Part shown: in pieces, positions 3,330 through 60,526 of the stretch
Layout: every line of letters begins with the position of its first letter
Position numbering within the stretch: the stretch's first letter is position 1
Assembly (NCBI GenBank): GCA_903876625.1
Contig: CAIRAO010000330.1
Span: forward strand, 1 to 60,981
Direction: 5' to 3'
DNA length: 60,981 nt
Origin: an uncultured Gallionellaceae bacterium
GTDB taxonomy: Bacteria > Pseudomonadota > Gammaproteobacteria > Burkholderiales > Gallionellaceae
Translations under genes and position numbers: made by a program
Notes under the pieces: model-generated
What the model was told of the DNA's origin: nothing
The model's database searches: none
The model's input: the letters and a program-made list of their open reading frames with translations, nothing else

Positions 3330-4763
3330 CTAGTTGGCTTCTTGCCAACCACCGCCCAGCGCTTTAAGCAAGCTCACTGCAGAAAGAAACTGACCGCCAC
3401 GAAGTTGTGATTGAACACGCAACGCTGATAATTGATTTTGTTGAACGGTTGCGAGCGTCAAGGCATTGTCTACACCTTCTTTATATCGCAATAAGGTTAA
3501 TTCGTACGCTCTGTTTTGGTTACGAACCGCTTCGTCCTGTTGCTTGCGCGCAACTTCCAATCCTTGCAGGTTGCTCAGTGCATCCTGTGCCTCCTGAATT
3601 GCCACCAGTACGGACTGCCGGTAGAGAGCTAGTGCGGCAACATATCCGGCTTGTGCAAAATTGACGCCTGCACGATTCCTTCCTCCATCAAACAAGGTTT
3701 GCGTGGCCTGAACCCCGACAGACCAAACGAGCGAAGGTGCGGAAAACAAATTGGAAAGTCCGTTTGATTCGTATCCACCGAATGTGGGCGTCAAACTTAG
3801 TGACGGAAAGTATGCCGCCTTGGCTACACCTATCTGAGCATTCGCTACCGCCATCGCGCGCTCGGCAGATGCAATATCCGGACGTCGTTCCAGCAATTTT
3901 GCCGGAACTCCAAGAGGAATCACCGGCGTTTTCGACGGCAATGTGCCGGAAGACAAATTGAAGTTGGGGGCTGGCACACCTGTTAGCGTGGCAAGTAAAT
4001 CCTCAGTTTGCTTTCGTTGGTTTATCAATAGCTGGAGTTGTACTTTGCTAGATTTAACCAAGGCACTTTGAAAAACCACGTCGTTCTCTGCCGAGACACC
4101 ATACTCATGGCGAACTTTCGTTAATTCAAGTACTTTTTCCTGCGACGCTACCGAGCCTGAAACGAAACTTATTTCCTCATCAAGCTGACGCAATTGAAAA
4201 TAGGCTGAAGCGACTTGAGCCGTTAAAATTAAACGTACATTTTCGTTATCCGCGGCAGCTTGCTCAGCGCTGGCCCGGGCGCTTTCTACATCGCGGCGTA
4301 CGCGTCCCAGCCAGTCTACTTCATAACTCACACTCACATTAGGTTTGAAATCGTTCTGCACTGTGCTGCTGTTCGGCACACTGTAATTGCCCAAGGGTCT
4401 GTTCGCTGAAGTTTGGCTTCGCGTTGCACTGGCATTGAGCGCTACGGTCGGCATGGTAGCCGCGCCATGTGCATTGCTTTGTGCAAGCGCCTGATCGAGA
4501 CGCACCACTGCGACCTTTAAACTCAAATTATCCTTGAGACAATTCGCTTCGAGTTCGTCGAGTTGTTTATCGCCAAAAGCTTTCCACCACTCTTTTTTTG
4601 GACTGGCATCAGCCGGAGTGGCGGGCTGCCAATCTGAGTCAGTTTTCCATCCGCTTGGTACATCTGTTATGTCTGGGCGTTTATAATCGAGTCCGACAGA
4701 ACTACAGGCAGCAGCCAAAAGAGCAACGCCTAAAAGCAACGCAATTTGGCGCATGGTTTTCAT
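3330..4763 (-). CDS. RND efflux outer-membrane factor lipoprotein (NodT/OprM family)
   Basis: Lipobox LLAAAC-SS and a 477-aa TolC-like repeat architecture. Its start overlaps the stop of the adaptor gene by 4 nt. Confidence 0.9.
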   Translation of the reverse strand: MKTMRQIALLLGVALLAAACSSVGLDYKRPDITDVPSGWKTDSDWQPATPADASPKKEWWKAFGDKQLDELEANCLKDNLSLKVAVVRLDQALAQSNAHGAATMPTVALNASATRSQTSANRPLGNYSVPNSSTVQNDFKPNVSVSYEVDWLGRVRRDVESARASAEQAAADNENVRLILTAQVASAYFQLRQLDEEISFVSGSVASQEKVLELTKVRHEYGVSAENDVVFQSALVKSSKVQLQLLINQRKQTEDLLATLTGVPAPNFNLSSGTLPSKTPVIPLGVPAKLLERRPDIASAERAMAVANAQIGVAKAAYFPSLSLTPTFGGYESNGLSNLFSAPSLVWSVGVQATQTLFDGGRNRAGVNFAQAGYVAALALYRQSVLVAIQEAQDALSNLQGLEVARKQQDEAVRNQNRAYELTLLRYKEGVDNALTLATVQQNQLSALRVQSQLRGGQFLSAVSLLKALGGGWQEAN

Positions 4764-17987: not shown

Positions 17988-19451
17988 TTAGCGTGGCAGC
18001 ACCGAACTGCCCATTAAAAACTCATCCACCGCACGGGCTGCCTGACGTCCTTCACGAATCGCCCACACGATAAGCGATTGCCCGCGACGCATATCACCCG
18101 CAGCAAATACTTTTTTCACATTGGTTTGATAGCAACCTGCGCCTTCGGTGCCTGCTTTCGCATTGCCGCGAGCATCTTTTTCTACACCGAATGCATCCAA
18201 CACTTGTTGCAACGGGTTAGTGAATCCCATGGCAAGTAATACGAAATCGGCCTTGAGTTCGAATTCGCTTCCCGCAATTTCGATCATCTTGCCGTCCTTG
18301 AATTCAACACGTACTGCTTTGATCGCCTTGAGTAAACCATTTTCTCCAACGAACTCTTTGGTAGCGATCGCCCAATCGCGCTCACAACCTTCTTCATGCG
18401 AACTTGAGGTGCGCAATTTGAGCGGCCAGTACGGCCAAATCAGTGGTTTATTCTCTTGATCGGGTGCGCGCGGCATTACTTCGATCTGAGTTACTGAAGC
18501 GGCGCCCTGACGATTAGATGTACCGACACAATCCGAACCTGTATCACCGCCACCTATGACAATTACGTGCTTGCCGGATACATTGATTGTGTTTTTCGCA
18601 TCACCGGCTATTTCCTTGTTCTGCGGAATCAGGAATTCCAAAGCGAAGTAGGCACCTTTCAATTCACGACCTGGAACCGGCAAGTCACGCGGTTGTTCAG
18701 CCCCACCAGTTAGAATCACTGCATCAAATTTCTTGTCTAGCTCTGCCGGACTGATGATTTTTTTTGCATCATTCGCAATGCCTTTACCCGGAGCCTCTTT
18801 CCCGACAAAAGTATTGGTACGAAACTCAACCCCTTCCGCAGCCATCTGTGCCATGCGCCAATCGATCAGGCGTTTGTCCAGTTTAAAGTCGGGTATACCA
18901 TAGCGCATCAGTCCACCGATGCGGCTGTTCTTTTCAAACACGGTTACACTATGACCAACGCGCGCCAATTGCTGAGCCGCAGCCAAGCCGGCAGGCCCAG
19001 AACCGACAATGGCGATTTTTTTACCCGTTTTTTTCTTGGCGGGTTGGGGCACAACCCAACCATTCTCACCGCCTTTATCGATGATGGCATGTTCGATCGA
19101 TTTAATTCCTACCGCGTCATTATTAATATTTAGCGTACAAGCTGCCTCACACGGTGCAGGACAAATACGCCCAGTCACTTCAGGGAAATTGTTGGTAGAG
19201 TGCAAAACATCCAGCGCTTGTTTCCAATTGCCGCGATACACCAAATCATTCCAATCGGGAATGATGTTGTTAACAGGGCAGCCGTTGTTACAAAACGGGA
19301 TTCCGCAATCCATACAGCGTGCGCCTTGTTGCTTGGCTTCGGCATCGGTCAAATGCGCGACAAACTCGTGATAATTTTTTAGCCGCAACTCAACCGGGGC
19401 GTAGCCTTCGTTGACGCGATCAAATTCCATGAATCCGGTTGGCTTGCCCAT
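17988..19451 (-). CDS. gltD: Glutamate synthase (NADPH) small subunit
   Basis: N-terminal 4Fe-4S Cys motifs (CMDCGIPFC) and FAD/NAD motif [11 protein letters not shown]. The start overlaps the gltB stop by 1 nt. Confidence 0.95.
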
Positions 19452-22400
19452 TATGCGGCCTCCTTCTGCTGTGCCGCGATCTCAAGCAATGCGCGACGAT
19501 ATTCTGTCGGCATCACCTTCACGAACTTGGGTAAATAAGTATTCCAGTTATCCAGAATCAAGCGCGCTCTTGCACTGTCAGTGTAGCGCAGATGCTTTTC
19601 GATCTTGCCGCGCAACACCGCCTCATCCGCTTTATTCAAATGATTAAAATGCACACGGCCGTGTGTATCAACTTCACCGGTTTCGCTGGCTGCCACTTCT
19701 TCAGGAACGGCCTCCAGCTCGACCATAGACAAATTGCAGCGCTTACTGAAAGTACCGTCTTCATCCAGCACATACGCAACACCACCAGACATCCCCGCCG
19801 CAAAATTGCGCCCGGTTTGACCCAGCACCACAACCATTCCCCCGGTCATGTATTCACAGCCATGATCGCCAAGGCCCTCAACAATTGCGGTTGCACCCGA
19901 ATTTCTTACCGCAAAACGTTCGCCTGCCACGCCACGGAAATAACATTCGCCGGAAGTTGCCCCATACATCACGGTGTTACCCACGATAATGTTTTCTTCC
20001 GCAACAATCTTGCAATCCCCGGCTGGTTTTACGATGATACGTCCGCCGCACAAACCCTTGCCGACATAGTCGTTGCCTTCGCCAGTCAATTCGAAACTGA
20101 TTCCGCGCGCCAGGAATGCGCCAAAACTTTGACCCGCCGTACCGGTTAACTTAACCGTTATCGTCTCCTCAGGCAGGCCAGCCTGTCCAAAGCGTTTGGC
20201 AACTTCGTGAGAAAGCATCGTACCCACGGTGCGATTAGAATTACCAATATCGCATTCGATCGTTACCACACGCTTTCCATCCAAAGCCTCCTTAGCGTGG
20301 GCGATAAGGATGTTGTCCAGCGCTTTACCAAGTTCATGGTCCTGCTCTTCAGAATGACGGCGAGCAACATTGGGGGCCACTTTGGGCTGATAGAATATTT
20401 TTGAGAAATCCAGACCCTGCGATTTCCAGTGCGCAATGCTATGTTTAACCTCCAGCAGATCACTGCGTCCGATCAGATCGTCAAACTTGCGTATGCCGAT
20501 CTGAGCCATCAACTCTCGTACCTCTTCAGCCACAAAGAAGAAGTAATTCACCACATGCTCTGGCTGACCGGTAAATTTTTTGCGCAATGCCGGATCTTGC
20601 GTGGCAACTCCCACCGGGCAAGTATTCAGATGACACTTGCGCATCATAATGCACCCTTCCACCACCAACGGTGCGGTAGCAAAGCCGAATTCATCCGCAC
20701 CGAGCAGCGCACCGATCAACACATCGCGCCCGGTCTTTAATTGACCATCGACTTGCAAACCAACGCGACCGCGCAGCTTGTTCATCACCAGTGTTTGTTG
20801 CGCTTCGGCCAAGCCCAGCTCCCAAGGCGTACCGGCATGCTTGATGGAGGACAGCGGCGATGCACCGGTTCCCCCGTCATAGCCCGACACAACGATATGA
20901 TCGGCTTTTGCTTTGGATACCCCCGCCGCAACGGTACCCACACCAACTTCTGACACCAGCTTGACAGAAATCGACGCAGACGGATTTGAGTTTTTCAAAT
21001 CATGGATGAGTTGCGCCAAGTCTTCGATTGAGTAAATATCGTGGTGCGGCGGAGGCGAGATCAATCCCACACCGGGAACGGAGAAACGCAACTTGGCAAT
21101 ATATTCAGAGACTTTTCCACCGGGTAACTGCCCTCCTTCACCTGGTTTCGCTCCCTGTGCCATCTTAATCTGAATTTGATCGGCGCTGCTCAAATACTCT
21201 GCCGTAACGCCAAAGCGACCCGAGGCAACTTGCTTGATGCGAGAACGCAAAGAGTCTCCCTCGCGCATCACAAAATCTGCCTCGATACGATTTTTACCGA
21301 TGATCTCGGAAAGTTTTTCCCCCGCTTTTAAGGTGCGGAACCGATTTGAATCTTCCCCTCCTTCGCCGGTATTCGACTTGCCACCGATTCGGTTCATGGC
21401 AATCGCCAAGGTGGTGTGCGCTTCGGTAGAAATTGAACCGAGCGACATGGCGCCGGTGACAAAACGTTTGACGATCTCTTTGGCAGACTCGACTTCATCC
21501 AGCGGTATTGCAGCACCCGCCGATTTGATCTCAAACAGGCCGCGCAATGTTTTCAGTTTATGCGCCTGATCATTGATGAGCTTGGCGTATTCTTTGTAAG
21601 TATTGAAATTATTCGTGCGCGTCGCATGTTGCAGTTTGGCGATGGAATCGGAGGTCCACATGTGTTCTTCGCCACGCACGCGAACCGCATATTCCCCGCC
21701 CGCGTCCAGCATATTTGCCAAAACCGGATCGTTGCCGAAAGCTTCAAGATGCGTGCGTACCGCTTCCTCGGCCACTTCGGCTAAGCCTATGCCTTCTATC
21801 TGGGTCGCAGTACCGGTGAAATATTCCGTCACAAAATTAGCATTCAAACCGATAGCTTCAAATATCTGTGCGCCGCAATAGGACTGGTAGGTTGAAATGC
21901 CCATTTTGGACATCACTTTCAACAAACCTTTGTCAATTGCCTTGACGAATCGCTTCTTGGCTTCTTTGGCTTCAATATTGCCAGGCAACTGGTCAGCAAT
22001 AGAGGCGATGGTATCAAAGGCAAGCCAAGGGCATATCGCCTCTGCGCCATACGCCGCGAGTAAGGCAATGTGGTGTGTCTCGCGGGCTGAGCCTGTGTCA
22101 ACCACCAAGCCTGTACTGGTGCGCAAGCCTGCACTGACCAGATGATGATGAATACCCGAAGTCGCCAGCAAGGCTGGAATGGCAACTCGCTCACTTGAAA
22201 CATTGCGATCCGACAAGATCAGAATATTGTAGCCATCGACAACCGATTGACTGGCCGCCTTGCGCAAAGCTTTAAGCGCCGCAGCACTGCCTTTGGCACC
22301 TAGATTGGCAGGATAGGTGATATCCAAAACAAGCGATTTGAAATGGCCTTTAGTTGTTTTATGAATATTGCGCAACTTGGCTATATCGTCATTGGTGAGA

Positions 22401-24160
22401 ACAGGTTGATGCGCCTCGAGGCGGAACGGTGGATCAGTTTCATCGACGCCCAACAGATTGGGTTTGGGGCCGATAAACGTTGTCAGCGACATGACAATTT
22501 CTTCACGGATCGGATCGATAGGCGGATTGGTCACCTGAGCGAACAATTGTTTAAAGTAGTTATACAGAACTTTATTTTTGTTGGACAGAACCGGTAGCGC
22601 GGCATCGTTGCCCATCGAACCGGTTGCTTCTTCACCAGACGCTGCCATAGGTGCAATCAGAAATTTCACATCCTCTTGCGTATAGCCGAAGGCTTGCTGT
22701 ATATCGAGAAGCGAAGCTTGAGGTATGGCTTTATCTTTGACTTCGGGCAGCTCTGCCAAAAAGTAACGGGATTCTTCGATCCATTTACGATAAGGCTTTG
22801 CGTTGGCAAGCTGAGTTTTTAATTCGGCATCATCCACAATACGTCCGGCTTGCATATCGATGAGAAACATCTTGCCCGGTTGCAAGCGCCATTTTTTCAC
22901 GATCTTGTTTTGCGGAATTGGCAACACGCCCATTTCCGAGGCCATCAATACCAGATCATCTTCTGTGATGAGATAGCGCGCGGGGCGTAAACCATTGCGA
23001 TCCAGCGTTGCGCCGATCATGCGGCCATCCGTAAAAGCCACGGCTGCCGGACCGTCCCAAGGCTCCATCAATGCCGCGTGGTATTCGTAGAAGGCGCGAC
23101 GCTCTTCATCCATTAGAGGGTTGCCTGCCCACGCTTCGGGTATCAGCAGCATCATTGCATGGGGCAAGGTATAACCACCTGCCACCAGCAATTCCAATGC
23201 ATTGTCGAAACAGGCAGAATCAGATTGGCCTTCAATGATCAATGGCCAAAGTTTGTCCAGATCTTCACCCAAAAATTTGGACGACATTGCCGCATGGCGT
23301 GCGGCCATCCAATTCACGTTGCCGCGCACTGTATTGATCTCGCCGTTGTGTGCGATCATGCGGAACGGATGCGCCAGATTCCAGGTCGGAAATGTATTGG
23401 TAGAAAAGCGCTGGTGTACCAGTGCCAATGCACTCGCTACGCGTGAGTCTTGCAGGTCAATGAAATATTTCCCGACTTGATCCGCAAGCAACATGCCTTT
23501 ATACACGATGGTACGCGATGACATTGAAGGAACATAAAATCCTTTCCCTTGTCCATTTGCCAAAGCCCGAACCGCATGTTCGGCTGTTTTGCGGATCACA
23601 AATAACTTGCGTTCAAAACTATCCTGATCTTTTGTTTTACTTCCGCGTCCGATAAACACCTGGCGCACCACAGGTTCAAGAAGTTTTACGCTTTCTCCCA
23701 AACCGTTTTTATTGACTGGCACATCGCGCCAGCCGATCAGCGTTTGTCCTTCAGCCGCAATTTTCTTTGCGATCACTTTTTCACATGCGCTGCGCGCAGC
23801 GTCTTCGCGCGGCAGAAATATCATCCCTATTCCATACTCACCTGCCGGTGGCAATTGAATGCCGCCCCAGTTCAATTCATCGCGCAAAAACTTGTCCGGT
23901 ATTTGAATCAAAATACCTGCGCCGTCACCAGTCAGCGGATCAGCGCCCACAGCGCCGCGATGAGTCAGGTTTTCTAATATTTGCAGGCCCTGGCTGACGA
24001 TCTCATGGCTTGGGATACCCTTGATGTGTGCCACAAATCCGACACCGCAAGAATCGTGCTCCTGGCTTGGATCGTATAAACCTTGCTGTGCTGGCATTCC
24101 GTGCGGCACGGTTGACCCGGGATTTTTTTGCAACGAAGAATTGCTCACGTTGTTCCTCAT
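19451..24160 (-). CDS. gltB: Glutamate synthase large subunit
   Basis: Ntn amidotransferase Cys in EHDSCGVGF, plus FMN/3Fe-4S and GXGXG domains. The track ORF extends to 24256. The real start is probably Met33 (24160) or Met54 (24097) and remains ambiguous. Confidence 0.93.
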
Positions 24161-24324
24161 TAAAACTTGACAACAAAATACGGTAACACACGCTACCGCT
24201 GCTAAATTCAAAAGCGAAAGGGCGAGAATGTTACCCTGTCTCGCAGCTATCAGCAATATCGTATTTTTGTGTCAGGTGCGATTCAAGCTGATGTGGAAGT
24301 CATGCCGCCAGCCATACAGATGTC

Positions 24325-52699: not shown

Positions 52700-52737
52700 T
52701 GTAAACGCTCACGCCCCAGATTCAGTAAAATGAACAC

Positions 52738-52974
52738 ATGGACTCCACAAAAAATTCCGCAAGCAGGCCCACTTTGGAAGGCATCACGCTTGAAACCATC
52801 GTGACGCAGCTTTCAGAGACTATGGGGTGGGAGGCAATGGGCAGCGCTGTACCGGTACGCTGTTTCACGCATGACCCAAGCATCAAATCCAGCTTGAAAT
52901 TCCTGCGCAGGACGCCGTGGGCACGCGAAAAAGTGGAGCAATTGTATTTGCAACAAAGTAAATCAAAACGTTAA
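52738..52974 (+). CDS. VF530/DUF2132-family small DNA-binding protein
   Basis: GITLETIVTQL...GWEAMG...RCFTHDPSIKSSLKFLRRTPWAREKVEQLY matches the family signature as I recall it. Confidence 0.75.
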   Translation: MDSTKNSASRPTLEGITLETIVTQLSETMGWEAMGSAVPVRCFTHDPSIKSSLKFLRRTPWAREKVEQLYLQQSKSKR

Positions 52975-53074
52975 TGTGTTTCGTCCCAGCTCGTACGCTA
53001 GCCAACTTTCTCGATAGCTACTTTCCGAACAATACCGAGGCAGGTTGCAACATTCCGTTTGCACTTGCGGATAG

Positions 53075-53458
53075 TGGCAAAAACCTGCGGCCTTAGTAGT
53101 CGCATCCAGCTACTTGATTTGAAACGTCATCACCGGCGCACTTGCCCGGCATGTCGTTTGAGTACACGCTTCAATGCGGCATTGAATTGCTGCTGTCGCA
53201 AATTCCGGTTTGGGGGCTCTTTTTGGACCCGGGACTGAAACTGCAACCGGCTGGAAAAAAACTCGTTTGAAACCTGAGTTTTTCCAAAAGCAGGATGAAG
53301 TCAAAAAAGTGGCAACTGAATTCAACCTGGCAGCCAACGAATTACAAAAAGTGGCTGCTACCGGCGATATTGGTGCTATCAAGACTCAATTCGGAAAGCT
53401 TGGAGAAACTTGCAAGAACTGCCACGACAGTTTCCGAATAAAGGATGATGGTAAATAA
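53075..53458 (+). pseudogene. Decayed cytochrome c' (class II c-type cytochrome) gene; only the C-terminal half is an intact ORF
   Basis: The track ORF 53210..53458 ends with the C-terminal haem motif CKNCHDSFR and contains FGPGTE..., as in the second half of cytochromes c'. The same frame upstream is broken by TAG 53072 and by TGA at 53120, 53159 and 53183. No signal peptide is present. Confidence 0.45.
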
Positions 53459-53661
53459 ATTCAGTGTTTGCACGTCCTCCGGGAGAGCATTCTGTTTCCC
53501 GAAAATATTTATTTTGAATTGCGTGCTAAATCCCGATATTCAACTTTCAGCTTAGCTTATCTTTTTTTCTTGTTTTTTGTTCTATTCAAGCAGTAATACG
53601 ATGCAACCTCATCACAATATTCGACGCTTTCGCTCGAGATGTGCCTAATGGAGAGGTTTCT

Positions 53662-54126
53662 ATGTCAATTGTAGTTGAGTCGCCAACTGAAAAATTAACC
53701 GAGTCAGAGACCATTCTGGACAATGCCCGCGAGAACGCACAGAAAATTGGGCTGCGCTATGCCGGTGATGTTGCGCCGAAAGATGCGTGGAATCTATTTG
53801 AGCAGGGTGACGCCAAATTGATTGACGTGAGAACGATTGAAGAACGTCAATCTGTCGGATACGTACCTGATTCGATCCATGTGGCATGGGCCATTGGAAA
53901 TCCAATGGTGAGCAACCCACGATTTGTGCGTGAACTCGAAAGCAAAGCAGGAAAGCTCGATGTTATTTTGCTTCTGTGCCGCAGTGGTAAACGTTCGGTC
54001 GCAGCTGCCGAAACTGTAAGCCGACTAGGTTTCAAAAATATTTTCAATGTTACTGAAGGATTTGAAGGCGAAAGTAATTTGAAAAACGGTTGGGTTAACC
54101 GCAATCTTCCTTGGGTTAAAGATTGA
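53662..54126 (+). CDS. Single-domain rhodanese (sulfurtransferase)
   Basis: Active-site loop CRSGKRS. Start moved to ATG 53662 behind GGAGAGG. Confidence 0.85.
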   Translation: MSIVVESPTEKLTESETILDNARENAQKIGLRYAGDVAPKDAWNLFEQGDAKLIDVRTIEERQSVGYVPDSIHVAWAIGNPMVSNPRFVRELESKAGKLDVILLLCRSGKRSVAAAETVSRLGFKNIFNVTEGFEGESNLKNGWVNRNLPWVKD

Positions 54127-55070
54127 TGAGCAAACATGAAATTCTTCCATTACCTGCGGATTGGGAGCTGGGTCGTGTAGTTGGCGAGTTGCGCGAAGTA
54201 CGTAGACTCTGGCGTGAATCTTGTGCGCGGAACCATGAATGCGGTGGACGTGAATTACCCGCGCCCGGACCGATTCGAGACATTGTTGACGGTCTGCGTG
54301 GAGCTTTGTTCCCGATGCGTTTGGGGCCACCTGATCTGCGCCAGGAAAGTGAAGACTTCTATGTGGCGCACACACTGGATAGCGCACTACATGCTTTGCA
54401 TCAGCAAGTTTTACTGGAGCTGCATTACACCTCGCGCCAATTGGGGCATGAACCTGATAACACCATAGAAGCTCGCGCAGTGAATATCGTTAAATCGTTT
54501 GCGGCCGCTTTACCTAAAGTGCGCAGCCTGTTGGATACGGATGTGCGCGCAGCCTATAACGGTGACCCCGCAGCTCACAGCGTTGATGAGATTTTGTTGT
54601 GCTATCCGGGAGCTCAGGCTGTCATTCATTATCGTTTGGCGCATGAACTCAACAAACTTGGCGCATCGATGATCGCGCGTATTGTTGCTGAATTGGCACA
54701 TTCAGAAACAGGCATCGACATTCATCCTGGTGCTCAAATTGGTTCTGGTTTCTTTATCGATCACGGTACGGGTGTTGTAATCGGTGAGACAGCCATCATC
54801 GGCGAACGCGTACGTATTTATCAGGCAGTCACTCTGGGTGCAAAGCGTTTTAAAGTAGGTGAAGACGGCGTGTTGGAAAAAGGCGCACCTCGCCATCCTA
54901 TTCTTGAAGATGATGTGGTTGTGTATGCGGGAGCCACGATTTTAGGTCGCGTCACTATTGGTAAAAGTTCCAGCATCGGCGGCAATGTCTGGCTCACGCG
55001 AAGCGTGCCACCGGGTAGCGTCATTACGCAGGCTAGCTCACATCATGAAGTTGCAGAAGACAAACCATGA
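54126..55070 (+). CDS. cysE: Serine O-acetyltransferase, long form (SrpH-like)
   Basis: Left-handed beta-helix hexapeptide repeats DIHPGAQIGSGFFIDHGTGVVIGETAIIGERV. N-terminal extension of about 100 aa. The ATG shares 1 nt with the rhodanese stop. Confidence 0.85.
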   Translation: MSKHEILPLPADWELGRVVGELREVRRLWRESCARNHECGGRELPAPGPIRDIVDGLRGALFPMRLGPPDLRQESEDFYVAHTLDSALHALHQQVLLELHYTSRQLGHEPDNTIEARAVNIVKSFAAALPKVRSLLDTDVRAAYNGDPAAHSVDEILLCYPGAQAVIHYRLAHELNKLGASMIARIVAELAHSETGIDIHPGAQIGSGFFIDHGTGVVIGETAIIGERVRIYQAVTLGAKRFKVGEDGVLEKGAPRHPILEDDVVVYAGATILGRVTIGKSSSIGGNVWLTRSVPPGSVITQASSHHEVAEDKP

Positions 55071-55282
55071 CCATCGAAGAATTCTCTCAAGTGCTACGCC
55101 AACTTCGCGAAGAGCGAGGCTGGTCTCAAGAGCAATTAGCTGAGCGTGCCGATCTTAATCGATCCTATTTGGGCGAAGTTGAGAGAGGACGTGCCGTACC
55201 ATCGATCATTACTGTTTCAAAGTTGGCAAGTGCCCTGAATATTCAAACGTCCACTTTGATTGCGCGCTGCGAGCATATTTAG
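55067..55282 (+). CDS. XRE-family helix-turn-helix transcriptional regulator (71 aa)
   Basis: LRQLREERGWSQEQLAERADLNRSYLGEVERGRAVPSIITVSKLASAL is a canonical HTH_3 pattern. ATGA overlap with the cysE stop. Confidence 0.8.
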   Translation: MTIEEFSQVLRQLREERGWSQEQLAERADLNRSYLGEVERGRAVPSIITVSKLASALNIQTSTLIARCEHI

Positions 55283-55302
55283 TTTTGCAGAGTCGTGGGA
55301 CT

Positions 55303-55329
55303 GTCATACCGGTGAAGGGCGGTATCCAG
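55303..55329. repeat. REP-like hairpin (ATACCGG...CGGTATCCAG class), copy 1
   Basis: gtcataccggtgaagggcggtatccag. Inverted relative to copy 2. Confidence 0.6.
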
Positions 55330-55396
55330 ATAAATAAATAGTCACTTCATAGAAGACAACACTATTCTTTTGTCCGCTGCGCGGGATTTTTTATAG

Positions 55397-55422
55397 CTGG
55401 ATACCGGCCTGCGCCGGTATAA
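55397..55422. repeat. REP-like hairpin (CTGGATACCGG...CCGGTAT class), copy 2
   Basis: ctggataccggcctgcgccggtataa. Together with copy 1 it forms a BIME-like inverted pair flanking a weak hairpin plus T6 (55372-55391). Confidence 0.6.
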
Positions 55423-55449
55423 CAAAAAGGATTTGGTGGCTATAGACGG

Positions 55450-55478
55450 TTGAATCTGAATTCAATTTGTCTGATTAT
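55450..55478 (+). promoter_or_regulatory. Candidate promoter/operator of the shell-cargo operon
   Basis: Palindrome TTGAAT-ctga-ATTCAA (55450-65) coincides with a possible -35, and GATTAT lies at 55473-78 (17-nt spacer). The 9-mer ATCTGAATT recurs at 55454-62 and 55505-13. Confidence 0.3.
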
Positions 55479-55531
55479 CGCTTAGCTAAATTTCGTATAA
55501 CTTTATCTGAATTTTTCATAAGGAGTAAACC

Positions 55532-56449
55532 ATGGCAACAGAAAGCAAAGAACAATTGGCACTAAGCGACGTCGCCGCGCGAACGCTAGCCAATGCCACC
55601 AAGACCATCCCACAACTAGACATCATCACGCCTCGCTGGTTGCCGCAGTTGCTGAGCTGGGTTCCGTTGGAAGCGGGTATTTATCGAGTCAACAAAGTTA
55701 AAGATGCTTCGCGTGTAACCGTTGCCTGCTCTCAGCGCGACGAACGTGAATTACCGCAAACCTTCGTGGACTACGAAGAGTGGGGCCGTGAATATATGCT
55801 GAGCGCCGTGAACACCGTGGTTGACGTGCATACCCGCGTGTCTGACCTGTACAGCAGCCCGCATAATCAAATTCGTGAACAATTACGCCTGACCATTGAA
55901 ACAGTCAAAGAGCGTCAAGAAAGCGAACTGATCAACAACAAAGAATACGGTCTGCTAAGCAATGTCGCCAATAGCCAGCGCATCAAAACCCGCACGGGCG
56001 CACCGACACCAGATGATCTGGATGAACTGATCACTAAAGTGTGGAAAGAACCCGGCTTCTTCCTGGCGCATCCATTAGCCATTGCTGCTTTTGGCCGTGA
56101 ATGCACCCGCCGTGGCGTACCGCCTCCCACTGTGACCATTTCCGGTTCGCCGTTCATCACTTGGCGCGGCATTCCGTTGATTCCTTCGGACAAGATTCCT
56201 TTAACTAAAGGCAAGACCAGCATCATCCTGTTGCGTACCGGAGAAAGCCGTCAGGGCGTGGTTGGTTTGTATCAGCCCAATCTGCCGGGCGAGCAAAGCA
56301 TGGGCTTGTCAGTACGCTTTATGGGCATTGACCGCAAGGCGATCGCTTCTTACCTGATTTCCTTGTATTGCTCACTCGCGGTACTGACCGACGACGCGCT
56401 TGCCGTGCTCGACGACGTCGAAGTGGGTAAGTTCCATGAGTACAAGTAA
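55532..56449 (+). CDS. Family 2A encapsulin nanocompartment shell protein (SrpI-like, HK97 fold)
   Basis: 305 aa. The N-terminal region ...DVAARTLANATKTIPQLDIITPRWLPQLLSWVPLEAGIYRVNKV... and the C-terminal ...SYLISLYCSLAVLTDDALAVLDDVEV match family 2 shells as I recall them. No cNMP-binding insertion is present. Strong SD AAGGAG. The cargo gene overlaps by 14 nt. Confidence 0.85.
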   Translation: MATESKEQLALSDVAARTLANATKTIPQLDIITPRWLPQLLSWVPLEAGIYRVNKVKDASRVTVACSQRDERELPQTFVDYEEWGREYMLSAVNTVVDVHTRVSDLYSSPHNQIREQLRLTIETVKERQESELINNKEYGLLSNVANSQRIKTRTGAPTPDDLDELITKVWKEPGFFLAHPLAIAAFGRECTRRGVPPPTVTISGSPFITWRGIPLIPSDKIPLTKGKTSIILLRTGESRQGVVGLYQPNLPGEQSMGLSVRFMGIDRKAIASYLISLYCSLAVLTDDALAVLDDVEVGKFHEYK

Positions 56450-58196
56450 TCTAAATATTCCTGACATCAGCTCGGCCAATATCCCAGTACAGGGTGATAT
56501 TGCCGCGCTGGCGGGCGGTCAAAATTTTGTGCCGGATGTTGCCATGATCGAACGTCTTGCCAACGAGCTATTTGCTGGGGTGCCAGGCAAGTTGGCAGCG
56601 TATTCCCCTTCCTTAGGTTCTGCCACACCGCCGCGAAATAATGATTTGGCTTTTCCGTTGACGGGTGGAGATCCGTTGGATCTGCATTTGGATACTCCTC
56701 ACACTCATTCGCCGCAATTGCCGGTAACGAGTGATTGGGCACCTGGTGCTGATTTTGCGTTGGCGCCTAATCTGGATGCCAGCAGTTATCCGGGTGAAGA
56801 TGTACTGCGCGATTTGTTGAAAGACAATGCCAAAGAGCACCCTAAGATGACCGGCGCGACGTTGTATTTTCTGGATGAAGCTGCGCGTTTCAATCGCAAC
56901 CCCTCGCAAGCCAGCATTCTGCAAACTGCATCAGTGAGTCAAGCTAAGGCTGCTGTCGGTCAAATTCCAACGTCAGCCCATCCGCCGTTCGATGTGCTAT
57001 CAGTGCGTCGTGACTTCCCCATCTTGAAAGAGTTGGTGAATGGACGTCCGCTGGCCTGGCTGGATAATGCCGCAACAACGCAAAAACCACAGTCTGTCAT
57101 TGATCGCTTGTCGTATTTTTATGAGCACGAGAATTCCAATATCCATCGTGCGGCACATGAAATCGCAGCCCGTGCTACCGATGCGTATGAAGGTGCGCGT
57201 GACAAGATCGCCGACTTCATCAATGCTAGTTCCAACAAAGAAATTGTATTCGTTCGGGGTACTACGGAAGCGATCAACTTGGTGGCAAAGAGTTGGGGCA
57301 AAAAACATATCGGCAAAGATGATGAGATTCTCATTACTCATCTGGAGCATCATGCCAATATCGTTCCCTGGCAAATGTTGTGTGCTGAAACCGGTGCGAA
57401 GCTGAAAGTGGCACCTGTTGATGAGGATGGTCAAATATTGCTGGAAGAGTATGAACGCCTGCTTAACTCTAAAACAAAGTTGGTTTCGTTCACGCAAGTA
57501 TCGAATGCGCTTGGCACGGTAACACCCGCCAAGCAAATGATCGAAATGGCGCATCGATACGGCGCTCGCGTTTTACTGGATGGCGCGCAATCGGTTTCTC
57601 ACATGCATGCCGATGTGCAGTATCTCGATTGTGACTTCTTCGTATTCTCCGGCCATAAAGTATTCGCTCCAACCGGTATTGGTGCTCTATACGGAAAACC
57701 GGAAGTGCTGGAAGAAATGCCCCCATGGCAAGGTGGCGGCAACATGATCGAAGATGTGACTTTCGAGAAGACACGTTACCATCCGGCTCCGTCTAAATTC
57801 GAAGCGGGAACAGGTAACATCGCCGATGCAGTCGGGCTAGGTGCTGCCATCGACTACGTGCAAAAACTCGGCATCGATAACATCAATCGTTACGAACATG
57901 AGTTGTTGGTGTATGCGATGGGCGCACTCGGCAGTATTCCCGGACTGCGCTTGGTTGGAACGGCAAAAGAAAAAACCAGCGTGTTGTCGTTTGTGTTGGA
58001 TGGTTTTCAAACTTCCGAAGTCGGCGAAGCATTGAATAAGGAAGGAATCGCTGTGCGAACGGGACACCATTGCGCACAACCCATCTTGCGCCGATTTGGA
58101 CTTGAAGCAACCGTGCGTCCATCATTGGCTTTCTACAACACCCACGAAGAGATTGACCGCTTAGTGAGCGTGGTTAGGCAATTGTCGAGAAAATAA
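56436..58196 (+). CDS. Encapsulin cargo cysteine desulfurase (SufS/CsdA-type class V aminotransferase with a disordered N-terminal loading domain)
   Basis: The C-terminal roughly 400 aa carry AWLDNAATTQKP, the PLP Lys in FSGHKVFAPTGIGALYG and the catalytic Cys loop RTGHHCAQP. The N-terminal roughly 185 aa are Pro/Ala/Ser-rich and contain IERLANELF. Start moved to the ATG at 56436. Confidence 0.9.
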   Translation: MSTSNLNIPDISSANIPVQGDIAALAGGQNFVPDVAMIERLANELFAGVPGKLAAYSPSLGSATPPRNNDLAFPLTGGDPLDLHLDTPHTHSPQLPVTSDWAPGADFALAPNLDASSYPGEDVLRDLLKDNAKEHPKMTGATLYFLDEAARFNRNPSQASILQTASVSQAKAAVGQIPTSAHPPFDVLSVRRDFPILKELVNGRPLAWLDNAATTQKPQSVIDRLSYFYEHENSNIHRAAHEIAARATDAYEGARDKIADFINASSNKEIVFVRGTTEAINLVAKSWGKKHIGKDDEILITHLEHHANIVPWQMLCAETGAKLKVAPVDEDGQILLEEYERLLNSKTKLVSFTQVSNALGTVTPAKQMIEMAHRYGARVLLDGAQSVSHMHADVQYLDCDFFVFSGHKVFAPTGIGALYGKPEVLEEMPPWQGGGNMIEDVTFEKTRYHPAPSKFEAGTGNIADAVGLGAAIDYVQKLGIDNINRYEHELLVYAMGALGSIPGLRLVGTAKEKTSVLSFVLDGFQTSEVGEALNKEGIAVRTGHHCAQPILRRFGLEATVRPSLAFYNTHEEIDRLVSVVRQLSRK

Positions 58197-58214
58197 TTAC
58201 TGTAGTTCAACCGG

Positions 58215-58249
58215 AAAAAGCCCCGACTTGGTTTGTCGGCGCTTTTTTC
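58215..58249. terminator. Bidirectional intrinsic terminator between the convergent desulfurase and GGDEF-EAL genes
   Basis: aaaaagccccgac-ttggttt-gtcggcgctttttt, with A/T runs on both sides. Confidence 0.75.
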
Positions 58250-58252
58250 TAT

Positions 58253-60526
58253 TTAACAATAACCAGACTTCCAATTAATTAGTTCATTTGCAGGCATAGG
58301 CCGGGCAATGCCATATCCCTGACCAATATCACAACCCATACTTAGTAACACTTGAAAATGCTCATTTGTTTCAATTCCCTCTGCAACAGTTTGCCGCTCA
58401 AATGCCTTTGCCAACGCAATGATGCCCTGAACGATTGCCAAATCACCTTTGTCTTCCAACATATCCCTCACGAATGATTGGTCTATCTTGAGTGTCTCCA
58501 TAGGAAGTGCGCTCAAGTAACTAAGTGAAGAATAACCTGTGCCGAAATCATCAAGTGCAAATCCGACTCCCAATTTATGACAAGATTCGATTATTTCACG
58601 CACAATTGCTATGTCGTTGAGCGCTACAGTTTCCAAAACTTCGATCTGCAGTTTTCCAAAAGGTAATTCAGGATAATATTCAAGTTGTTGTTGAAGTCTT
58701 TTAACAAAATCTGAACTTTCCAAGTGGTACCCGGATATATTGATGCTAACCTCAATGTCCATTCCGTCACTTCGCCAGCGGCTAAGTTGAGCTAACGCTG
58801 TGGCTGTTACCCACTCTCCGATCTCAATGTCAAGATATGTGTTTTCTATCGCTCGAAGAAATTCCGCTGGCGGCAGCAATCCGCGAACAGGATGATTCCA
58901 TCGAATCAACGCTTCAGCACTTACAAGTTGTCTGGTACTTAGGTTTACTTTGGGTTGGTAGAATAATTCAAACTGACCAAGTTCCAATGCTTGCTTGATA
59001 CTCTGTAGAAATTCGTGTTGGTCACGAGCCAACCGATCAAGTGCAGGATCATAAATATGGAAACGGTTTTTTCCATTCTGCTTGGCGATATACATTGCAT
59101 GATCAGCATGACGCAAAAGAGTATCCGCGTCTTCGTTATCTAATGGGAAAATGCTGACTCCAATACTGGCGCTTATCGAAACCGACTTGCTTTTAACTGA
59201 GATGGGGGCGGAAATGGCCTTGAGCAGACGATCTATCGTCGATGCACATTCCTCACCCTTCTCAATTCCCGATAGTAGAACTACAAATTCGTCACCGCCT
59301 AAACGGGCAACTGTGTCACCACCACGGATCGTGTTCCCAATTCGATGTGCAATTTCAACCAAGACTTCATCTCCTGCCGAATGCCCCATCTCATCGTTGA
59401 CTGGTTTAAATCCATCCAAGTCAAGATAACAAACCGCCAACATGTTTTTCTCGCGCGAGGTCTGGGCGATAGATTGTTTCATTCGATCCGCCAGTAAGAC
59501 ACGATTAGGAATACCCGTCAGCGCATCATAATGGGCAACTCGATTAAGTTCGGTTTCATGCTGTTTTCGTTCTGTAATATCACGAAATGCTGCCTGAACG
59601 GCTGGCTCTCCATCATAATCAATGACTGTACCTTGAATTTCTACATCAAAAACGGTCCCGTCAAGTTTGATAAATTTTTCTTCTACCAAAGGTGCCGGTA
59701 GCCCATCAATTGAATTTTTCTTTATGCGATCTAAAACGATTTGGTGATAATCCGGGTGAATCAGACTGAAAACAGATTTACCAATCAAATCTTCCGCGGC
59801 TTGAGCGGCCAGTAATTTTATTGCCGACGGATTCACGTAAATAATATTGCCTTTTCGATGTACGATGATCGAATCCGGTGTCCATTCAACTAATGTCTGG
59901 TAACGCACTTTGCTTTCAATCAACAACCTCTCTCTTTGTTCGGCTTCGAGATGCAGAGAAATATTCTCTATCAGGTTACTATTGATCTTGCGCAAAGTTG
60001 CCACCATAAAGCAAAGATAAAGAATTCCAGCTAATCCCATTGCTTGTGACAGACTATCGCCAACTATAAATAAGCGAATAGAAATTGGCAACAGTACGAA
60101 TATGGAAAACCCAATTGCACAGATTAGATCGGTTGAAAACGTGACTACCCCGCCGGCAGATAAGCCGGCCAGCATATATACCAGAAACATTTCATGCTCT
60201 GAATTGTGTTCAGGGAAAAGCAAATAACCGGAGGATCCCCATACTAATCCGACTAACAGCGTGCCGGCACGGTATATAGTTAATCGTTTACGAATTACTA
60301 AAGCATCATCAATTTGAAAACGTCTATATTGAATTACAAATAATAACCGTATGATTGCGACAAAAACAATCGAATAAAACCAATAATTAATTATCGTCGA
60401 AGAAATCACGCCAACCTGCATATAGGCGAGAGCACCTGCCAATAAAGTACTGGTCAAAATCGACACCGGACTCGCGGCAAGAAGTTGACGCAACTGTTCA
60501 ATTTCAATTGCTGACTTTTTATTCAT
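58253..60526 (-). CDS. Membrane-anchored PAS-GGDEF-EAL c-di-GMP turnover protein
   Basis: N-terminal polytopic sensor region of about 190 aa, a PAS domain, GGDEF (RLGGDEFVVLL) and EAL (EALIRWNHP ... DDFGTGYSSL). Confidence 0.9.
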   Translation of the reverse strand: MNKKSAIEIEQLRQLLAASPVSILTSTLLAGALAYMQVGVISSTIINYWFYSIVFVAIIRLLFVIQYRRFQIDDALVIRKRLTIYRAGTLLVGLVWGSSGYLLFPEHNSEHEMFLVYMLAGLSAGGVVTFSTDLICAIGFSIFVLLPISIRLFIVGDSLSQAMGLAGILYLCFMVATLRKINSNLIENISLHLEAEQRERLLIESKVRYQTLVEWTPDSIIVHRKGNIIYVNPSAIKLLAAQAAEDLIGKSVFSLIHPDYHQIVLDRIKKNSIDGLPAPLVEEKFIKLDGTVFDVEIQGTVIDYDGEPAVQAAFRDITERKQHETELNRVAHYDALTGIPNRVLLADRMKQSIAQTSREKNMLAVCYLDLDGFKPVNDEMGHSAGDEVLVEIAHRIGNTIRGGDTVARLGGDEFVVLLSGIEKGEECASTIDRLLKAISAPISVKSKSVSISASIGVSIFPLDNEDADTLLRHADHAMYIAKQNGKNRFHIYDPALDRLARDQHEFLQSIKQALELGQFELFYQPKVNLSTRQLVSAEALIRWNHPVRGLLPPAEFLRAIENTYLDIEIGEWVTATALAQLSRWRSDGMDIEVSINISGYHLESSDFVKRLQQQLEYYPELPFGKLQIEVLETVALNDIAIVREIIESCHKLGVGFALDDFGTGYSSLSYLSALPMETLKIDQSFVRDMLEDKGDLAIVQGIIALAKAFERQTVAEGIETNEHFQVLLSMGCDIGQGYGIARPMPANELINWKSGYC

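Follow-up and report, generated by a model that had tools for sequence, protein, structure and literature searches.

The DNA analysed here (the window) is a 60,981-nucleotide stretch from an uncultured Gallionellaceae bacterium, and it contains a block of genes that we read as a family 2A encapsulin system, in which a protein shell is paired with a cysteine desulfurase as its cargo. The block consists of five co-oriented genes on the + strand, encoding a rhodanese, a serine O-acetyltransferase (SAT), a small regulator of the XRE type, the encapsulin shell protein and the desulfurase. All five open reading frames (ORFs) were reproduced from the ORF list at the coordinates claimed in a preliminary description of this DNA, as were the overlaps it reported (14 nt between shell and desulfurase genes, 1-4 nt among the upstream genes) and its AAGGAG site. 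Comparisons between loci were made throughout with the 80 closest related loci, designated by L-numbers.

53662-54126, + strand: rhodanese gene, 154 amino acids; GGAGAGG precedes the ATG
54126-55070, + strand: SAT gene, 314 amino acids from the ATG; 1-nt overlap with the rhodanese gene (TGATG)
55067-55282, + strand: XRE regulator gene, 71 amino acids; 4-nt overlap (ATGA) with the SAT gene
55532-56449, + strand: shell gene, 305 amino acids; AAGGAG at 55520-55525, six bases ahead of the ATG
56436-58196, + strand: desulfurase gene, 586 amino acids from the ATG; 14-nt overlap with the shell gene

The XRE and shell genes are separated by a gap of about 250 nt. An alternative start for SAT exists at a TTG (54123), which would give a 4-nt overlap with the rhodanese gene, but the ATG at 54126 is more likely because relatives align from residue 2. 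For the desulfurase, the ATG at 56436 and the 14-nt overlap with the shell gene are found again in many relatives; a TTG at 56400 (598 amino acids) was also considered as the start and rejected, as relatives give it no support.

Shell and cargo proteins

The identity of the shell protein is carried by curated profiles and by its likeness to solved structures. Searched with profile hidden Markov models, as the preliminary description had suggested, the protein clears the cut-off of the NCBIfam family 2A equivalog NF041162 (537.3 bits, cut-off 380) over model positions 1-295 of 295, and it matches Pfam PF19307 (SrpI-like) at E=7e-108 (359.9 bits versus 22.8). Among solved structures it matches 6X8M (SrpI, E=8e-161), 8T6R (Acinetobacter baumannii, E=3e-152) and 8WOL (Mycobacterium smegmatis Mmp1), with full-length ungapped identities of 78% to 6X8M (303 residues) and 75% to 8T6R. 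Judged by sequence, the protein is thus a SrpI orthologue and is predicted to have the HK97 fold, which bears out its earlier recognition as a family 2 (SrpI-type) HK97 shell. Equally sound was the earlier remark that the protein lacks the cyclic nucleotide monophosphate (cNMP)-binding insertion of family 2B: at 305 amino acids it contains no cNMP-binding domain and has SrpI-like as its only Pfam domain, and the family 2B chains 9BJE, 9BHU and 9BIX align with it only from about their residue 230 on (the C-terminal ~240 residues, the HK97 core).

The desulfurase scores 884.9 bits against NF041166 (family 2A encapsulin nanocompartment cargo protein cysteine desulfurase; cut-off 800) and 572 bits against TIGR01979 (sufS), and carries Pfam Aminotran_5. 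Its residues 174-584 match 8KG1 at E=1e-188, so that of all solved structures 8KG1, which we infer to be the M. smegmatis Enc-CD cargo, is nearest to the catalytic domain. This SufS-like class II domain, dependent on pyridoxal phosphate (PLP), begins at about residue 185-189, in keeping with the 586-residue SufS-type enzyme with a low-complexity N-terminus of roughly 185 residues that had been described before. The motifs SGHK (residues 405-408) and GHHCA (residues 543-547) fall opposite identical motifs in the 8KG1 alignment; following established SufS knowledge, we take them to be the contexts of the PLP-binding lysine and of the persulfide-forming, catalytic cysteine, respectively. With both contexts intact, the enzyme is predicted to be catalytically competent.

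Residues 1-185 of the desulfurase abound in Pro, Ala, Ser and Asp and lack Cys; P, G, S, A, T, N, Q and D together make up 63% of this part, as against 44% of the catalytic domain. The region also holds variants of the two loading motifs, LARLANEFFS and AASPYYFLDG, that were defined for SrpI-associated desulfurases (Nichols 2021, PMC8049743):

56547-56576, + strand: IERLANELFA, desulfurase residues 38-47, variant of LARLANEFFS
56853-56882, + strand: GATLYFLDEA, desulfurase residues 140-149, variant of AASPYYFLDG

Both variants are kept in Gallionellaceae-type relatives. From its composition and motifs, the N-terminal part of about 185 residues is predicted to be a disordered cargo-loading domain.

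Across phyla, conservation of the shell is unusually high: the window protein is 77-84% identical to shells of Bacteroidota and Acidobacteriota (loci L044-L079) and 78% identical to cyanobacterial SrpI, and the cargo in those same loci (L044-L079) is only 54-77% identical. That the shell is so much better conserved than its cargo suggests either that the shell is strongly constrained or that horizontal transfer has been frequent.

Operon composition, related loci and known systems

The three upstream genes agree with the preliminary description, which had named a rhodanese (CRSGKRS), a long-form SAT and a small XRE protein. The rhodanese is a single-domain protein (Pfam PF00581, E=3e-14) with its active-site loop CRSGKRS at residues 106-112 (nt 53977-53997); it is 80% identical to the syntenic gene of L002 and is a putative sulfur acceptor or remobiliser. 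SAT scores 162 bits against NCBIfam NF041874 (EpsC-type SAT, cut-off 150) and 168 bits against TIGR01172 (cysE) over residues 138-302, also matches Pfam Hexapep, and carries DIHPGA at residues 198-203; this long-form enzyme is predicted to make O-acetylserine, the precursor of cysteine. The 71-residue XRE protein matches Pfam HTH_3 (E=1.6e-17) and is likely a local transcriptional regulator; a gene for it between SAT and shell genes occurs, among the 80 loci, only in eight of Gallionellaceae type (L002, L003 and L005-L010). In the Sideroxydans locus L006, a gene of the PALP family (like CysK or O-acetylserine sulfhydrylase) lies at 3769-4746 between the rhodanese and SAT genes, as an extra of Sideroxydans type, and a gap of similar size separates the two genes in L005 and L009. 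The window lacks this gene, since its rhodanese and SAT genes overlap directly.

Relatives of the shell are widespread. The protein search returned at least 8000 candidates at E<=1e-20, the best of them 90-95% identical, and relatives occur in at least 558 species genomes, many of which are betaproteobacterial with the protein already named as such. The rarity implied earlier was therefore overstated: the locus is not rare, and family 2A operons are common and already annotated in the lineage. Of the 80 loci, 79 reach past the shell gene, and shell and desulfurase genes are adjacent in every one of these (79/79); because of this adjacency, and because the curated scores exceed their cut-offs, the arrangement is not a chance pattern. 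SAT lies directly upstream of the shell gene in most betaproteobacterial loci. The nearest locus belongs to a Gallionellaceae metagenome-assembled genome (99% shell identity), followed by loci of Gallionella, Sideroxydans, Ferriphaselus and Nitrotoga (Betaproteobacteria, order Nitrosomonadales). The host is accordingly a Gallionellaceae bacterium of an iron-oxidiser-type lineage, which fits the betaproteobacterium originally proposed.

Desulfurase encapsulin operons have been surveyed on a large scale: Benisch et al. 2024 (PMC10836720) catalogued 1462 of them from 11 phyla and sorted them into four operon types, with a rhodanese in about 50%. In an earlier survey, the neighbours of family 2A shells were aminotran_5 (94.9%), Hexapep (56.2%), rhodanese (48.7%) and HTH_3 (22.5%) genes (Nichols 2021, PMC8049743), the HTH_3 neighbours being one gene away in the median (supplementary file 2 of Nichols 2021, PMC8049743). 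As all four types appear in these frequencies, every gene of the window operon is of a published neighbour type, and the order of the operon is that of the four-component type of Benisch et al. (rhodanese, SAT, shell, desulfurase; PMC10836720) plus an HTH_3 gene. The view that a shell, desulfurase, rhodanese and SAT neighbourhood is the signature of family 2A operons thus matches both the published operon type and the published neighbour frequencies.

The four-component type is the one characterised in A. baumannii (PMC10836720). There, sulfur limitation raises the expression of the whole four-gene set about 10-fold, the desulfurase is the sole cargo of a 24-nm T=1 shell, and a crystalline deposit of elemental sulfur forms in a desulfurase-dependent manner and is shielded from reductants (PMC10836720). 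The operon of A. baumannii 118362 (J517_0525-0528; 8T6R) resembles that of the window in its rhodanese-SAT-shell-desulfurase order, in its shell (75% identical, ungapped) and in its cargo, which likewise joins a long disordered N-terminal loading domain to a SufS-like catalytic domain. Unlike A. baumannii, the window carries, between its SAT and shell genes, the additional 71-residue XRE gene and 250 nt of intergenic DNA; its loading domain is shorter (~185 as against ~225 residues), and its host is a betaproteobacterial Gallionellaceae member, not a gammaproteobacterium.

With SrpI/CyD of Synechococcus elongatus PCC 7942 (6X8M, 6X8T; PMC8049743), the window system shares, besides a shell of 78% identity and the loading motifs in variant form, a sulfur-metabolism neighbourhood that includes SAT. 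The M. smegmatis Mmp1/Enc-CD system (8WOL, 8WON; PMC11659603) also has a family 2A shell (E=1e-134 against the window shell), but its host is actinobacterial and the disordered region of its cargo is shorter (~155 residues), with different motifs.

Intergenic region and edges of the block

Two elements fill much of the gap between the XRE and shell genes, namely a structured insert and, next to the shell gene, a conserved region:

55302-55424, + strand: structured insert of 123 nt, two 20-bp palindromes in inverted orientation flanking a terminator-like hairpin
55306-55325 and 55401-55420, + strand: the insert palindromes, ATACCGGT-GAAG-GGCGGTAT and ATACCGGC-CTGC-GCCGGTAT
55373-55385, + strand: terminator-like hairpin in the insert, then a T-run (terminator scan)
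55428-55531, + strand: conserved region upstream of the shell gene (~105 nt), with a TTGGTGGCTATAG..GGTTGAA box, a GCTTAGCT box and AAGGAG (55520-55525)

The conserved region contains sequence blocks that are invariant across all ten Gallionellaceae-type loci (10/10), and a box within it is found in seven loci, with one copy in the window. From this conservation we regard it as a putative internal promoter or operator for the shell-desulfurase pair. No conserved RNA structure was found upstream of the shell gene (consensus energy -1.4 kcal/mol, no covariation), and a riboswitch or leader RNA is unsupported for that reason. A GCTTAGCT box with a T-run precedes both the rhodanese gene (53550-53575, + strand) and the shell gene (55480-55496, + strand). 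Three matches to the box were found against 0.37 expected, two of the three overlapping; the box could be a common operator of the two genes, for which the evidence is weak. A GCTATAGC palindrome was considered as a conserved operator and set aside, its copy in the window being inexact (GCTATAGA).

The insert forms an inverted repeat, its 37-nt arms being 81% complementary, and has a predicted RNA fold of -54.7 kcal/mol (z=-6.0). It is present at the same site in L003 and partial in L001; L005 has a diverged form, with compensatory changes in the palindromes, and L002 and L006-L010 have none. An Rfam scan of 52700-58400 gave a sole, sub-threshold match, which falls on the insert (WsnRNA46, 23 bits where the gathering score is 65), so that no Rfam family was assigned. 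A search for further copies, as would befit a repetitive extragenic palindrome or a miniature inverted-repeat transposable element (MITE), turned up, across the window and the 80 loci, nothing beyond the orthologous L003 site. The insert may be a terminator, an operator pair or a MITE remnant, and it may insulate the rhodanese-SAT-XRE genes from the shell-desulfurase genes.

DNA homology to relatives spans 53185 to ~58250, and the edges of this block of about 5 kb are marked by the following features:

53185-53458, + strand: cytochrome c' remnant, matching PF01322 positions 51-121 only; stop codon just upstream
58223-58239, both strands: bidirectional terminator-like hairpin (terminator scan) that closes the operon and is common to the convergent PAS-GGDEF-EAL gene

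The homology starts inside the 5'-truncated cytochrome c' gene, and that to L002 begins exactly at 53185. In L002 and L009 the cytochrome c' gene is complete and encodes a signal peptide, and ahead of it lies a gene that reads, in translation, as cytochrome b561-like. In the window the block is flanked upstream (52738-53184) by a gene for a VF530 DNA-binding protein and downstream (58253-60526) by the PAS-GGDEF-EAL gene; in L002 (8993-11181) LpxC and FtsZ genes lie downstream, and the flanks are not syntenic with those of close relatives. Such non-syntenic flanks suggest rearrangement or transfer of the block as a cassette. Flanking repeats that would mark a mobile cassette were looked for at the block edges, and none were found.

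The locus lies amid chromosomal housekeeping genes, for example those of glycine cleavage. In this it is unlike SrpI of S. elongatus PCC 7942, which is plasmid-borne in its cyanobacterial host. Elsewhere the window holds a very large ORF at 19451-24256 on the - strand (1601 amino acids, TTG start) and several other long ORFs.

Function, alternatives and regulation

The best explanation of the locus is very probably a family 2A desulfurase encapsulin system, predicted from the profile scores, the likeness to solved structures and the conserved gene order; none of the profile, structure-homology and synteny tests gave a result that contradicts membership of the family. The system is of an already described type and differs from the studied examples only in small regulatory details. 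If it works as its orthologues in S. elongatus, A. baumannii and M. smegmatis do, sixty shell subunits would assemble into a T=1 shell of ~24 nm, inside which desulfurase dimers would be tethered through their N-terminal domain. Cysteine would enter by the fivefold pores and be converted to alanine and persulfide sulfur, which would accumulate as elemental sulfur shielded from cytosolic reductants. SAT would feed cysteine synthesis, the rhodanese would be a candidate acceptor remobilising stored sulfur, and sulfur limitation would probably raise expression. The local anatomy further suggests a conserved promoter or operator region belonging to the shell-desulfurase pair itself, a separation of this pair from the rhodanese-SAT-XRE genes by the terminator-like palindromic insert in this genome, and local regulation that probably falls to the XRE protein.

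Several results weigh against this reading. Structure prediction for the shell is weak: a single-sequence AlphaFold model is unusable (predicted local distance difference test, pLDDT, 32.3), and a model built with 69 homologues reaches a pLDDT of 48.9 and a predicted template modelling (TM) score of 0.50, from an alignment that is shallow and offers little information because all the homologues are 79-95% identical. Even so, the AlphaFold and Foldseek comparison proposed in the preliminary description put the shells of family 2A at the top, those of family 2B next and HK97-fold phage capsids, HK97 itself among them, after these (TM score ~0.49, on the model of pLDDT 48.9). This ranking lends weak support to the predicted HK97 fold, and in view of the weak prediction the fold is based on homology to cryo-electron microscopy structures (78% identity) and not on the model. 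Before the rhodanese and shell genes, a sigma-70 scan found no strong promoter on the + strand, the latter being the site of the putative internal promoter. In the literature, we found no demonstration for any betaproteobacterium of assembly, loading, sulfur storage, induction by starvation or the target of the XRE protein. Nor did we find any publication linking encapsulins with Gallionella, Gallionellaceae or Betaproteobacteria, in agreement with the preliminary description, which knew of no characterised betaproteobacterial example.

The physiological role had been called still open, and it is less open than that, because sulfur storage was shown in 2024 for the A. baumannii operon of the same type (PMC10836720); protection of the cargo by the M. 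smegmatis shell was published in the same year by Tang et al. 2024 (PMC11659603), with conclusions similar to those of the A. baumannii work. Induction by sulfur limitation with accumulation of elemental sulfur has been demonstrated in S. elongatus and A. baumannii alone (PMC10836720), and one may ask whether a genuine family 2A encapsulin serves here mainly for something other than sulfur storage, such as protecting and activating the desulfurase or buffering cysteine and persulfide, for instance to supply iron-sulfur (Fe-S) clusters or to limit sulfide toxicity in a chemolithotroph that oxidises iron. We consider this possible but unlikely. Tang et al. stress the shielding of the cargo against oxidation, encapsulation raises both the activity and the lifetime of the desulfurase (PMC10836720), and for the host lineage, the Gallionellaceae, our literature search found no physiology. 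Against it stands A. baumannii, in which an operon of this same four-gene type serves to store elemental sulfur and responds to sulfur limitation with about 10-fold induction. Genes for Fe-S assembly (sufBCD, sufE, iscU) were not seen beside the locus, and one role need not preclude the others.

Two further readings concern the shell itself and have almost no probability left. In the first, the shell would be of family 2B, with a cNMP-binding domain and a terpenoid-type cargo; NF041163 does give the protein 432 bits (cut-off 400), a pass explained by the HK97 core that both families have, but the match runs only through positions 210-449 of the model, family 2A gives the better score (537 bits), the operon supplies a desulfurase as cargo and not a terpene cyclase, and the length and domain content of the shell refute the assignment. 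In the second, the protein would be the major capsid protein of a remnant HK97-type prophage beside an unrelated housekeeping SufS, a notion that draws on the fold shared by encapsulins and phage capsids (the latter among the weaker Foldseek matches) and is refuted by the family 2A score, the 78% identity to SrpI, the family-specific N-terminal domain and cargo-model score of the desulfurase, the pair kept in every related locus reaching past the shell gene, and the absence of phage genes flanking the shell gene.

Returning to the family 2A desulfurase encapsulin, the features around it permit a scheme of regulation peculiar to the Gallionellaceae, in which the operon's own XRE protein would act as a repressor on the conserved shell promoter or operator and perhaps on the GCTTAGCT box of the rhodanese gene, the insert would uncouple expression of the shell-desulfurase pair from that of the rhodanese and SAT genes in some genomes, and the cassette of ~5 kb with its truncated cytochrome c' gene would have moved between contexts. 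Taken as a whole, this scheme is distinctly doubtful, and the regulatory features of the Gallionellaceae loci are minor.

The system already has three examples with solved structures and biochemical study behind them, and more than 1000 of its operons are catalogued; being an orthologue that routine annotation would recognise, the locus adds little to what is established about the family. It has a modest value as a betaproteobacterial representative of iron-oxidiser type and, as a second use, for studying control of the operon by the XRE protein, the regulation of family 2A systems having hardly been studied. The question that such a representative allows to be asked is whether encapsulin sulfur storage matters in sulfur-poor freshwater chemolithotrophs.

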